From an uncultured Planctomycetaceae bacterium (lineage in GTDB: Bacteria > Planctomycetota > Planctomycetia > Planctomycetales > Planctomycetaceae), in the NCBI GenBank assembly GCA_963813715.1, contig CAWFAK010000008.1, positions 416,001 to 480,000 on the forward strand: a stretch of DNA of 64,000 nucleotides, given 5' to 3'. Below are positions 33,106-35,747 of the stretch, piece after piece; position 1 is the first letter of the stretch; each line of letters starts with the position of its first letter. The translations under genes were made by a program, and so were the position numbers. The notes below the pieces were generated by a model. It was not told where the DNA came from. It was given only the letters and a program-made list of their open reading frames with translations, and searched no databases.

Positions 33106-34383
33106 TTAATCGTGGCCGCCGCGCTCGCGGATCAATTGCAGTGCCGGTTGGCTGACAAAAACTTTCGCGTGGAACTGCTCGCCCCAAGCTAGCGGTGTGA
33201 TGGCGCGATATTCGTGCGGCGAGGTGTCGTACTCGCGGGCATAGCCCGTGTGGAGCTGTTTTCGCAGGGAGGCGCGCACGTTGGGATCGGCCCCGTGGTC
33301 GAGCAAGAGCTGCGTGAGCTTCGGGACTTGCGGCCGGTTCTGGTAGTTCATCCAGAAGTTCGGTTGCGAGACGACAGTGCCAAAGAGGGACGTGTGTCCG
33401 CCGAAGCCGTCGGCGTCGACGGCCGCTTTGGCGTCGACGGGCATTCCCCGCGCAATCAGCCAGCGGGCGATTTCCTGCTCGTCGTAATCGACGCACATGT
33501 GCAAGAGTGTCGTCCCGGCGAGCGGTGTCCCCTGCGTCGCCAGCACTTCGTCGTGGCAACCGAGTGCGGGCGGATAGATTTCCTCGTGCGTGAAGGTCCG
33601 CGTCAAGAGTGCCGGATCGCGCCGCAAATGCTCTTCGAGCAAGTCGATCCGCCCGCGGTGCAGTGCCATTGTCGGCGTGTCGGGCAGTTCGACCCCCGCG
33701 CGGAAGAAAGCCTCCAGGATTTGATGCTTGGCGACCGGGGTGCGGCTGTCGGTCTCGAGCACCACGTCCACGGGGGCGAGCAGGCGGCCGTCCTCGTCAT
33801 GAACTTGTGCTCCCAGTTCCAGCATCAGCTCGATGCCGGGGACGTTGAGCGTATACGCCGGCCCGTTTAAACAGCCCGCCCGCGGCCGCGGCTCCCCCAT
33901 CATCCGGTGCAGCATGCGAGCCGTGTCGATCTTTCCCTGCAGACTGGCCCGGTCGAGCGCATGCTCGAGGTCCGTCGCACCGCGTTCGGCCAGCGCGCGG
34001 ATGACGCGGTCGCGGCCCAGGTTGGCTGCGTAACTCAGCGGCGGACCCCAGTTGCTCCGCTCGTTGCCGTTGGCCATTTCGTGCACAAGCTGGGGATGCT
34101 TGGCGACGAGCTGGCAGATCGCGTCAACGTCGTCTTCCCAGATGGCGTCGGTCAGGCGGCAGGCGAGGACGAGCCGCGGCCAACTGGCCACCCCGTAGCT
34201 CCTCGCCAGCGCATGCTGCACTTGCGACAGCTTGATCGCACTCGGTTCGAGGGTTTCGGACAGCTGGGCCGTGATTTCGGCGAGCGCAGCCTGATCGCTG
34301 CGGCGGGCCTGGCGGAGCAGATCTTTGGCCTGGTGCCTGAGCTGCTCGAGGTTCGGACGGACGGGAAGATGACGGGCCGACAT
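33106..34383 (-). CDS. Ankyrin-repeat protein with an N-terminal LPxRPNLEQLRxQAKDLL helical domain
   Basis: GGAGG RBS; N-terminus LPVRPNLEQLRHQAKDLL...QHALARSYGVASWPRL; ankyrin-like PPLSYAA, TTLLHMCVD, LLLDHGADPN and TPLAW motifs. Confidence 0.85.
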   Translation of the reverse strand: MSARHLPVRPNLEQLRHQAKDLLRQARRSDQAALAEITAQLSETLEPSAIKLSQVQHALARSYGVASWPRLVLACRLTDAIWEDDVDAICQLVAKHPQLVHEMANGNERSNWGPPLSYAANLGRDRVIRALAERGATDLEHALDRASLQGKIDTARMLHRMMGEPRPRAGCLNGPAYTLNVPGIELMLELGAQVHDEDGRLLAPVDVVLETDSRTPVAKHQILEAFFRAGVELPDTPTMALHRGRIDLLEEHLRRDPALLTRTFTHEEIYPPALGCHDEVLATQGTPLAGTTLLHMCVDYDEQEIARWLIARGMPVDAKAAVDADGFGGHTSLFGTVVSQPNFWMNYQNRPQVPKLTQLLLDHGADPNVRASLRKQLHTGYAREYDTSPHEYRAITPLAWGEQFHAKVFVSQPALQLIRERGGHD

Positions 34384-34515
34384 GACGCTCCCTCCCTTTG
34401 ATGGCGCCTGGTGTCCGCTCGCGTCAGGCTAAAAGGAGAGTGCGCAAAACGAATTTTCGACGTCGAGCAGGTGAACTCGGTCCTTCCCGCGGACAGGGGG
34501 CGTCCTGCACGCCGA
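34384..34515 (-). ncRNA. Candidate structured cis-regulatory 5' leader RNA
   Basis: Lies between the predicted promoter and the ATG. Outer stem UGUCCGC/GCGGACA extended by CGCC/GGCG; internal CGAG-UUCACCUG-CUCG hairpin; CUCUCCUUUU can pair with GGAAGGA or with the SD region AAAGGGAGGG. Confidence 0.5.
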
Positions 34516-34520
34516 GTTCC

Positions 34521-34549
34521 AGCCTAGCCCCGGTTGGACGGCCGTTCAA
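34521..34549 (-). promoter_or_regulatory. Sigma70-type promoter for the ankyrin gene
   Basis: Minus strand TTGAAC (34549-34544), 17-bp spacer, TAGGCT (34526-34521). Confidence 0.6.
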
Positions 34550-34600
34550 GACGCGAATCACGCTGCGAAATCTCGTCGTCGCGCTCCCGCTCGCGGCACG

Positions 34601-34629
34601 TTGACACCCTCCTCCGCCGGTCCTAGCAT
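34601..34629 (+). promoter_or_regulatory. Sigma70-type promoter for the 34800-43805 operon
   Basis: Consensus TTGACA (34601-34606), 17-bp spacer, TAGCAT (34624-34629). Confidence 0.7.
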
Positions 34630-34799
34630 GGAATCTGAGGCGATGCGGTGTCGACAGTTTTGTACGCAAACTGGCTTGATCAAGTAACTTGCGGCCAGCC
34701 CCGTCCTCCCGGCCATTCCTTAAGATTCGCCGCCACTTTTCGGCCTCTCGCTTGTTTACTAATGGGTGAAAAATCCGCGTTCGCGGCGGAACTTTGATC

Positions 34800-35747
34800 A
34801 TGCCTGCGCCTAGTCGCGTCGCCCGTCTTGGCCAAAGCCACTCGGCCGCGCCCGTCATCCGCGTGACCAACTACGACCGCGTCTGGTCGACGTTGGTGGC
34901 GCTGTTGGCCGTTTTGATCGTGGCCGTTTGGTTCCTGTTCCTGGTGTGGGACAGTTTTCGGCCGCACGTCGCCAAGATGCAGCAGGCAATCGAGGTGATC
35001 GAAGACGAGAGCGGCGGGATCGAGGGGGGCTCTCCCACCGAATCGCTCAAGCTCGAAGGGACCGGCCCCGAACGCGCCGATGCCAGCCCGAGCGAAGCAT
35101 CCGACGACAGCCGGCCCGAGGTGGAGAACGTGCTGCAAAGCGTCTCGCTCGAGGCGGCCAGTGCCGCAACGTCCGGCGCCGTGGCGGCCGGTGCGTCCGA
35201 TCAGCTGGAGCTCGACACGGCTCCGGTCGCCACTCCCAAGGGGGGATTTGCCCGCGGCACGGGAACCAAGCCCGCGCTCGGCGGCGGTCCGGGCTCGAAA
35301 GGCGGCTGGCCGCGGCACCAGCGGTGGTACGTGTTCTTTTCCGACGAAGGTTCGCTCACCCAGTACACCAAGGAACTCGACTTCTTCGGCATCGAGATCG
35401 GCGCGCTGATGCCCGATCACACGATCACCTACGTCTCGCAGTTGTCGACCGACAAGCCCGTCGTGCGAAGCGCGGCTGACGGCGAGGAGGAGAAGCGGCT
35501 CTTCTTCACCTGGCAGGGGGGTAAGCGGCGGTCGGCCGACGTGGAACTGTTCACCAAGGCCGGCGTTTCCATCGGCCCCGATACGATCATCTTCCACTTC
35601 TATCCGCCCGCCACCGAAAACATGCTCGCCACGAGAGAGCGGGCCTATCGGGATCGCCCCGTCCGGGAAATCCGCCGGACCTTCTTCCAGGTCGTTCCGG
35701 CCGGGGAAGGATTCGACTTCGAGGTCACGCGCCAGGTGTATTACTGA
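34800..35747 (+). CDS. Hypothetical single-pass membrane protein with an acidic/Gly-rich linker and globular C-terminal domain
   Basis: TM helix near the N-terminus; C-terminal YTKELDFFGIEIG, FFTWQGG and IRRTFFQV; first gene of the operon. Confidence 0.75.
   Translation: MPAPSRVARLGQSHSAAPVIRVTNYDRVWSTLVALLAVLIVAVWFLFLVWDSFRPHVAKMQQAIEVIEDESGGIEGGSPTESLKLEGTGPERADASPSEASDDSRPEVENVLQSVSLEAASAATSGAVAAGASDQLELDTAPVATPKGGFARGTGTKPALGGGPGSKGGWPRHQRWYVFFSDEGSLTQYTKELDFFGIEIGALMPDHTITYVSQLSTDKPVVRSAADGEEEKRLFFTWQGGKRRSADVELFTKAGVSIGPDTIIFHFYPPATENMLATRERAYRDRPVREIRRTFFQVVPAGEGFDFEVTRQVYY

Follow-up and report, generated by a model that had tools for sequence, protein, structure and literature searches.

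We analysed a 64,000-nt stretch of DNA from an uncultured Planctomycetaceae bacterium (the window; its own genome is referred to as G000) and observed that an ankyrin-repeat gene on its minus strand is preceded by a conserved 5′ leader, which very probably acts in cis as a structured element that occludes the Shine-Dalgarno (SD) sequence and belongs to a new RNA family. The leader most likely controls the translation of the ankyrin gene in response to a signal. An earlier note, made from the letters of this stretch, had described here a promoter, a folded leader and two mutually exclusive pairings of an anti-SD tract, and all the strings that it named are present on the minus strand where it placed them. 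It had found a real element and had been right about its general character: the leader as a unit, structured, bounded by a promoter and conserved in front of the ankyrin gene, is borne out by its conservation among homologs and by covariation. Among the six elements that it had proposed, the promoter, the long-range helix P3, the anti-SD:SD helix P5 and the leader unit stood, and a CGAG/CUCG hairpin and a CGCC/GGCG closure did not.

Conservation of the leader and its linkage to ankyrin-repeat genes

The gene, the leader and its promoter are located in the window as follows.

33106–34383, minus strand: ankyrin-repeat gene, 425 aa; Pfam Ank, Ank_2, Ank_3 and Ank_4
34159–34383, minus strand: conserved N-terminal helical domain of ~75 aa (profile A5), hereafter the N-domain
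34381–34516, minus strand: whole leader motif (covariance model R1), 136 nt, with the start codon at its end
34521–34526, minus strand: −10-like hexamer TAGGCT; its end lies 8 nt upstream of the first invariant G of helix P1
34544–34549, minus strand: −35-like hexamer TTGAAC, read directly, with a 17-nt spacer to the −10 hexamer

We scanned genomes (one per species) for relatives of the ankyrin protein. The scan gave 132 stretches that encode such relatives, and the best 80 of these 132 (L042–L121), whose proteins are 52–91% identical to that of the window, were taken as ortholog loci. They come from Acidobacteriota (many of them Pyrinomonadaceae), Gemmatimonadota and Planctomycetota. When the intergenic region of the window was used as an nhmmer query, 73 of the 80 loci matched, and the match was always directly upstream of the gene. 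These matches correspond to 34514–34391 of the window and thus begin just past TAGGCT; a few extend somewhat further upstream, and the locus of the related genome G002 (L042) is an exception that aligned over the entire intergenic region. The covariance model R1 (138 positions), which was used to draw diverged members from whole genomes, detected the motif in 75 of the 78 ortholog loci that have upstream DNA. No motif was found by this model at E ≤ 0.01 at L051, L059 and L104, the motif is weak or partial at L049 and L056, and L064 and L112 have no upstream DNA. The window copy itself scored 98.4 bits against R1 (E 1.9e-16 in the genome search) and aligns end to end with 70 ortholog leaders.

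Two alignments were used. A2 consists of 71 ortholog leaders aligned by MAFFT and fitted to no structure; it omits L056 (3′ half only), L051, L059 and L104 (no leader), L120 (upstream DNA too short), L049, L077 and L082 (start codon not fixed), and L064 and L112 (no upstream DNA). A7 holds 96 members and was fitted to helices P1, P2, P4 and P5, so that these four are biased in it; PK1 and P3 were absent from the model that built it. Among the 71 orthologs, the 5′ domain averages 80% identity to the window copy, the 3′ domain 68% and the linker between them 36%; in the coding sequence the identity is 76% at codon positions 1 and 2 and 44% at codon position 3. The value at the third codon position means that neutral sites are saturated. 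As judged from these identities, the 5′ domain of the leader is constrained at least as much as the protein.

The promoter proposed in the earlier note (TTGAAC-N17-TAGGCT) agrees with the consensus in 7 of its 12 positions, as we counted them, and a consensus promoter scan listed only the plus-strand TTGACA-17-TAGCAT (34601–34629), not the promoter of the leader. Its position, however, is kept among the relatives: 62 of 91 members have a TTGNNN-N16–18-TANNNT sequence the end of which lies 6–12 nt upstream of the first invariant G of P1, and shuffling gives an expectation of 0.63 per set. The −10 hexamer varies among them as TATTCT (19), TATGCT (16), TATCCT (7) and TAGGCT (3), and the commonest −35 hexamers in the family are TTGACC and TTGACG. 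Between G000 and G002 both hexamers are unchanged and 5 of the 17 spacer bases differ. The note had regarded the place of the transcription start relative to the stems as a check on its proposal, and here the conserved block of sequence was seen to begin ~8 nt after the −10 hexamer; the conserved promoter would put the start of transcription at the edge of the motif. At the other end, the last three positions of R1 are ATG, GTG or TTG in 95 of the 96 members, and the spacing from the SD to the start codon is 5–6 nt in 86 of 96. No terminator-like site was seen within the leader.

The linkage of the leader to one kind of gene is nearly exclusive. All the downstream open reading frames (ORFs) that were scanned (10/10) encode ankyrin-repeat proteins, the shortest of 385 aa and the longest of at least 501 aa (at 501 aa, four of the ten ORFs reach the edge of their locus), and these proteins share only the N-domain, which is 32–61% identical to that of the window, and the ankyrin repeats. 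In five genomes, 11 N-domain genes coincide exactly with 11 motif sites. An N-domain ORF begins at the last three bases of the model in 91 of the 96 members, and of the other five, three run off the contig and two are weak matches. Nine of ten further motif matches in a phylum-wide sample precede an N-domain ORF. A pattern scan of metagenomes gave at least 120 matches; 73 fetched loci had at least 250 nt of downstream DNA, and the N-domain follows in 70 of these 73, L290 being a decayed copy. The N-domain also occurs without the leader: L194 and L205 have the domain and no detectable motif. Six proteins of ~203–229 aa (L197, L198, L199, L206, L207 and L208) carry an internal copy of the N-domain and have no leader motif, and Pfam Glyoxalase_8 matches 4 of 20 N-domains weakly (best E 0.0079). 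The domain is therefore not confined to ankyrin proteins.

The protein offers few clues of its own. A homolog search returned 7106 proteins at E ≤ 1e-20 among 8000 scored, with public names of 'hypothetical' or 'ankyrin repeat' only. An AlphaFold2 model of the 425-aa protein (predicted local distance difference test score, 90.6) has ankyrins and DARPins as its best PDB fold matches; the predicted fold of the whole protein would be an ankyrin solenoid, and no enzyme-like domain was seen in the model. The N-domain has no significant sequence relative in the PDB (best E 0.027) and no Pfam family above the cut-off, and no RNA-binding family was found in the protein by Pfam, NCBIfam or PDB sequence searches.

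In samples of ~150 genomes each, the motif was present in 14 of 151 genomes of the window's family, 10 of 151 of its phylum and 12 of 151 of the phylum of an acidobacterial carrier, or in about 7–9%, with up to six copies per genome (three in G000, six in G320 and five in G321). Runs from soil and rhizosphere contain the stretch of the window. The leader had initially seemed to be lineage-specific, because a search of 41 related genomes with the intergenic DNA found it only in G002 (96% identical). Four of the other five matching genomes have only the half that adjoins the plus-strand gene, and G005 has a 49-nt piece of the leader core. The leaders of G000 and G002 differ at a wobble pair of P2 (G·U to G-C), in the linker and in the stretch just before the SD core, and there are no differences inside P1, PK1, P3 or P4.

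Several members deserve mention in their own right. Besides the window copy, G000 holds two others elsewhere in its assembly. One of them (L123, contig C8:589503-589629; 66.1 bits) precedes a gene that begins with TTG and encodes an ankyrin protein of 491 aa in which the N-domain is present twice in tandem. The other (L124, C12:219574-219705; 48.8 bits) is followed by an ORF of only 160 aa, the counterparts of which in G009 and G002 have 400 aa, and the short ORF may stem from a frameshift, from decay to a pseudogene or from a mistake in the assembly. In a planctomycete subgroup (L128, L129, L133, L134 and L138), P3 has 8 bp and a further GC-rich hairpin stands between P4 and the SD. Two metagenome contigs (L223 and L284) have the 5′ domain only (P1 to PK1); the 3′ domain, the SD context and the N-domain ORF that usually follow are missing, which might reflect decay of the copies or some other arrangement. 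The protein is distributed patchily: it is present in 3 of 12 genomes of the window's genus, yet orthologs that are 52–71% identical to it occur across Acidobacteriota, Gemmatimonadota and Planctomycetota, which suggests that promoter, leader and gene have moved as a unit by horizontal transfer.

Predicted fold and covariation

The comparison of the homologous leaders yielded a model of six helices, which are placed in the window as follows (all on the minus strand; numbers of covarying pairs and paired cells refer to A7).

P1: 5′ arm GGCG 34513–34510, 3′ arm CGCC 34502–34499; core columns 4–7/43–46 of A7, with G-C to A-U and C-G exchanges
PK1: 5′ arm CAGG 34507–34504 (in the P1 loop), 3′ arm CCUG 34471–34468; 6/6 pairs covary, 95.6% of cells paired
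P3, long-range: 5′ arm UGUCCGC 34495–34489, 3′ arm GCGGACA 34418–34412 (in the P4 loop); 7/8 pairs covary
P2, hairpin GGAC-CGA-GUUC: 34473–34483, arms 34483–34480 and 34476–34473; 3/4 pairs covary, 99.7% of cells paired
Variable linker: 34441–34467; 36% mean identity to the window copy
P5: anti-SD CUCUCCUUUU 34440–34431, SD region AAAGGGAGGG 34399–34390; 5/7 pairs covary, 96.7% of cells paired
P4: 5′ arm GCCUG 34429–34425, 3′ arm CAGGC 34410–34406; 5/5 pairs covary

The conservation and the covariation upstream of homologous genes, which the earlier note had asked for as a check, are strong. On the structure-free alignment A2, the six-helix model is paired in 96.7% of cells, and 10 of its 30 pairs changed on both sides, against 2.2±1.2 in shuffled alignments (0 of 500 shuffles reached this number). 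On A7, 89.1% of cells are paired, against 40–45% when the partners are slid, and 31 of 37 pairs changed on both sides, against 17.7±2.0 in shuffles (0/500) and 13–18 with slid partners; the covariation score is 0.212, against 0.115 for shuffled alignments. Besides the helices for which the list above gives the number, P1 has 5 of 7 pairs changed on both sides. P4 of the window copy itself differs from the consensus by a C-G to U-A exchange. The G·U pairs make up 121 of 3171 cells, and 58 of these G·U cells belong to P5 (our own sums of the GU and UG entries in the per-pair table of A7).

As the covariation indicates, four bases in the loop of P1 pair with a downstream strand as an H-type pseudoknot (PK1), with P2 inside its long loop. 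Loops 1 and 2 are short and loop 3 is longer, as is characteristic of this type, and loop 3 here holds the 5′ arm of P3 together with P2. Loop 1, between P1 and PK1, measures 2 nt in 72 of 96 members; loop 2, on the return from PK1 to P1, measures 1 nt in 93. The junction from P3 to P2 is 5 nt in 94 of 96, the P2 loop 3 nt in 87, and a single nucleotide separates P2 from the 3′ arm of PK1 in all 96. The linker from PK1 to the anti-SD column, on the other hand, ranges from 19 to 45 nt in 95 of 96. The junction lengths are therefore nearly fixed (2, 1, 4, 5, 3, 1 and 2 nt in 72 to 96 of the 96), only the linker varies, and the unpaired junction bases are near-invariant across the three phyla.

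P3, as the covariation indicates, is a helix of 6–8 bp that clamps the 5′ domain onto the loop of P4, and it crosses both P4 and P5. The earlier note had proposed this UGUCCGC/GCGGACA helix as the closing stem of the leader, and it is now supported by compensatory changes at seven of its eight pairs. The 3′ arm of P3 follows the 5′ arm of P4 by 4–6 nt in 91 of 96 members, and it precedes the 3′ arm of P4 by 2 nt in 85. Because of these loop lengths, P3 and P4 would be able to coexist as a second pseudoknot, with the strand running from P3 to P4 stacked through, a conclusion that comes from geometric reasoning.

P5, placed directly below P4, corresponds to the pairing of the anti-SD tract CUCUCCUUUU with the SD region AAAGGGAGGG that the note had put forward, and five of its seven pairs carry compensatory changes. 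At two of its pairs C-G is replaced by U-A, in 9 and in 11 members, at positions where the SD itself has changed; a shift of the SD from GGAGG towards GAAGG is accompanied by a change of C to U in the pyrimidine tract. The minimum free energy (MFE) fold of the window copy includes P5, and the SD of this copy is paired with a probability of 1.00.

Two other helices of the note gave way to different pairings. The hairpin CGAG-UUCACCUG-CUCG is not conserved; its CCUG has CAGG in the loop of P1 as its partner, and the conserved hairpin at this place is GGAC/GUUC. Similarly, the closure of CGCC (34502–34499) by GGCG (34408–34405) is not conserved: CGCC pairs with the upstream GGCG at 34513–34510, and the relatives lack a 3′ GGCG.

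We also considered and rejected three helices outside the model. A nested alternative from RNAalifold (CGC/GCG, replacing P1 and P3) falls in near-invariant columns with no pair changed on both sides, and by eye it appears to be broken in L141. The helix ACCUG/CAGGU, which competes with PK1, and a linker hairpin AGGUUC/GAACCU, which overlaps 3 nt of the anti-SD, were each seen by eye in the main acidobacterial group and are lost in the Gemmatimonadota and Planctomycetota subgroups.

Possible modes of action and the intergenic setting

If the fold acts as its position suggests, transcription would start ~7 nt after TAGGCT and the whole motif would be carried on the mRNA. The complete fold would hide the ribosome-binding site and would represent the OFF state, and an effector would alter the stability of the 5′ domain and of the P3 clamp, thereby setting how often the SD is free. 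The effector may well be a small molecule or an ion, in which case the leader would be a sensor of the riboswitch type; the near-invariant junction bases, the fixed geometry and the conservation across phyla led us to consider this. The covariation, including that on the structure-free MAFFT alignment A2, is that of a conserved structured aptamer, and P5, by occluding the SD, is what an expression platform should look like. We propose, somewhat more tentatively, that the leader is a novel class of riboswitch with a ligand that has so far not been connected with sensing by RNA, and that the sole output of this class is a very large family of ankyrin-repeat proteins with a common N-domain in soil Acidobacteriota, Gemmatimonadota and Planctomycetota.

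Several results weigh against a ligand-controlled, SD-occluding leader. The MFE of 34375–34530 (minus strand) is −59.1 kcal/mol, against −58.6±4.1 for shuffled sequences (z = −0.12), and 90 of 200 shuffles fold equally well. With a pseudoknot-free model, the SD is paired with a mean probability of 0.80 over the family, against 0.72 with shuffled upstream sequence, and only 53% of the members pair the SD with the aligned anti-SD at a probability of at least 0.5. No alternative, SD-free (ON) structure with covariation support was found. The earlier note had offered one, in which GGAAGGA captures the anti-SD in a mutually exclusive pairing; this is paired in 84.8% of cells, yet 496 of 500 shuffles are at least as high. 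Contigs from RNA libraries (four studies) cover not only the leader but also the DNA upstream of the predicted start (X11 record 5: 34387–34591); their depth is low, DNA carry-over is possible, neither start, strand nor level can be read from them, and they were not used as evidence either way. Against a metabolite ligand in particular, the motif is tied to a single, non-enzymatic gene family, and none of the observations points to a ligand. Genes for the synthesis, use or transport of a ligand were not found in association with it, the linked genes being those of ankyrin-repeat proteins (10/10; N-domain in 91/96). None of the genes that flank the 80 ortholog loci is conserved among them, and the unit therefore consists of promoter, leader and gene.

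The other tests on the single sequence were similar in outcome. The 134-nt leader folds with an MFE of −45.9 kcal/mol, the anti-SD:SD helix included, and imposing on it the closing stem and the hairpin of the earlier note costs 5.9 kcal/mol. The anti-SD:SD duplex (−19.5 kcal/mol) compares with −16.6±2.3 kcal/mol when the upstream sequence is shuffled, is equalled by 11.6% of 1000 shuffles, and has an equally good upstream counterpart at 18% of 225 gene starts with a strong SD in the window's genome. Every energy or shuffle test on the single sequence thus came out at the level of chance, and the signal became visible only through the comparison of homologous loci.

The main rival to a small-molecule sensor keeps the same SD-occluding fold and makes the effector a protein: the encoded ankyrin protein, through its N-domain, or a partner of it would stabilise the OFF state in an autogenous feedback like that of ribosomal-protein leaders. 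We regard this as rather unlikely, although the exclusive gene linkage that marks autogenous leaders is present (11/11 in five genomes, 91/96 members, 9/10 phylum-wide and 70/73 metagenome loci), genomes with several copies have each of them before its own paralog (as in G000, G320 and G321), the N-domain and the ankyrin repeats are the only parts common to proteins that differ widely in length, and pseudoknots that include the SD are a typical feature of leaders under protein control. Such linkage would also arise if leader and gene were duplicated together, however, and the protein has no recognisable RNA-binding domain, Pfam giving ankyrin repeats only; its N-domain is without a significant solved relative or a Pfam family above threshold. 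The N-domains without a motif (L194, L205 and the six ~203–229-aa proteins) also speak against a protein effector, as do the rates of change, since the 5′ domain is ~80% identical and the N-domains 32–61%, and co-evolving partners are not expected to differ so much in rate.

A leader without any dedicated effector, either an RNA thermometer or other physical sensor, or a constitutive throttle of translation or stabiliser of the mRNA, appears improbable to us. The pairing of the SD with a U-rich pyrimidine tract, including the G·U pairs of P5, recalls thermometers, no covarying alternative structure was found, and the soil-bacterial hosts face swings of temperature. A double pseudoknot, fixed junctions and near-invariant unpaired bases in three phyla nevertheless exceed what a thermometer or stabiliser needs, and the energies of the nested folds are not exceptional. 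Models of the ROSE and FourU thermometers belong to Rfam, and the leader matches neither; it is not the simple SD hairpin of the ROSE or FourU type. It is very improbable, finally, that the conserved block acts at the level of DNA, as an operator or extended promoter, or gives rise to an independent small or antisense RNA instead of an mRNA leader. In favour of this one may cite the 416-bp divergent region in which the leader lies, with a second conserved promoter on the plus strand, and the fact that the transcription start of the leader is a predicted one. Against it, compensatory changes maintain long-range and pseudoknot pairs, and the G·U pairs would fail on the opposite strand and are therefore strand-specific. 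The conserved block, moreover, runs from past the −10 hexamer to exactly the start codon with a conserved SD and spacing, and the element accompanies the ankyrin gene: relatives that keep the divergent neighbour but have no ankyrin gene lack it. A leader that occludes the SD and responds to a signal, possibly a small molecule or ion, is the reading that we prefer over these.

The other half of the divergent intergenic region was also found to be conserved. It leads to the following neighbour.

34800–35747, plus strand: divergent ORF, 315 aa, no Pfam match; a gene for an FHA-domain protein is next

The gene of this 315-aa ORF is present in 57 of 61 genomes of the family. The intergenic half before it (34586–34800, plus strand) is 100% identical between G000 and G002 over ~190 nt and 68–79% identical in four more genomes of the genus; no Rfam match was found in it. 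The plus-strand TTGACA-17-TAGCAT (34601–34629) is kept in G010, G009 and G006, and conserved blocks continue to 34800. From this pattern of conservation, the segment is probably a conserved promoter with a 5′ untranslated region (UTR) of ~165 nt.

Significance and relation to known systems

The earlier note could match the leader to no riboswitch class that it knew, and there was no relevant match in Rfam 15. A search of 33800–35300 of the window at E ≤ 10 gave two matches at the level of chance (E 8 and 8.8), both of them on the opposite strand and far short of the gathering scores, and twelve member loci (42,130 bases) gave none at E ≤ 1. A search of full-text literature outside subscription journals found no description of an RNA motif in front of ankyrin genes of bacteria, and the main text of a survey of 224 motifs (PMC5737381) contains no mention of ankyrin, Planctomycetes, Acidobacteria or Gemmatimonadetes.

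On the sequence comparisons, then, the leader would constitute a new family among structured 5′ leaders that occlude the SD, which are a known kind, and this family is widespread in soil bacteria, being found in about 7–9% of the sampled genomes of two phyla with up to six copies each. Its alignment is ready for experiments, with strong covariation, two pseudoknots and the occlusion of the SD as a read-out. The signal sensed by the RNA would be the first clue to when these abundant ankyrin-repeat proteins are needed. If the leader is a riboswitch, finding its ligand would offer a first way into the function of these proteins; if it responds to the encoded protein, the latter would be the first bacterial ankyrin-repeat protein to repress its own translation through a double-pseudoknot leader.

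Among known systems, the SAM-II and preQ1-II RNAs are translational riboswitches that have the SD built into a pseudoknotted aptamer. The leader resembles them in its location in a 5′ UTR, its H-type pseudoknot, the pairing of the SD within the fold, the lack of a terminator and the conserved junction bases. Unlike them, it is larger (~135 nt, with two pseudoknots and two domains), precedes ankyrin-repeat genes only and has no Rfam match. The ZTP (pfl) riboswitch is composed of two sub-domains joined by a variable linker and locked by a long-range helix, with a 3′ expression platform. The same arrangement of two domains, variable linker, long-range lock and expression platform at the 3′ end is seen here; the helices, the conserved bases and the genes all differ, and no match to the ZTP model was obtained from Rfam.

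The leaders of the E. coli S15, L20 and S4 operons are autoregulatory and contain the SD in a pseudoknot. They share with the present leader the strict one-to-one association with a gene and a pseudoknot that involves the ribosome-binding region. Unlike in those operons, the product here is an ankyrin-repeat protein without a known RNA-binding domain, and the leader spans three phyla with ~80% identity in its 5′ domain. The yjdF motif is a riboswitch candidate of the orphan type, described as occurring almost exclusively with one gene of unknown function (PMC4793209), and like it the leader is a structured element linked to a single protein family of unknown function, which makes its ligand hard to guess. 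The two are otherwise unrelated in RNA, taxa and protein family. The leader belongs to none of the systems compared here; what it has in common with the SD-containing pseudoknot riboswitches, the two-domain aptamers such as ZTP and the pseudoknotted ribosomal-protein leaders is the working principle.

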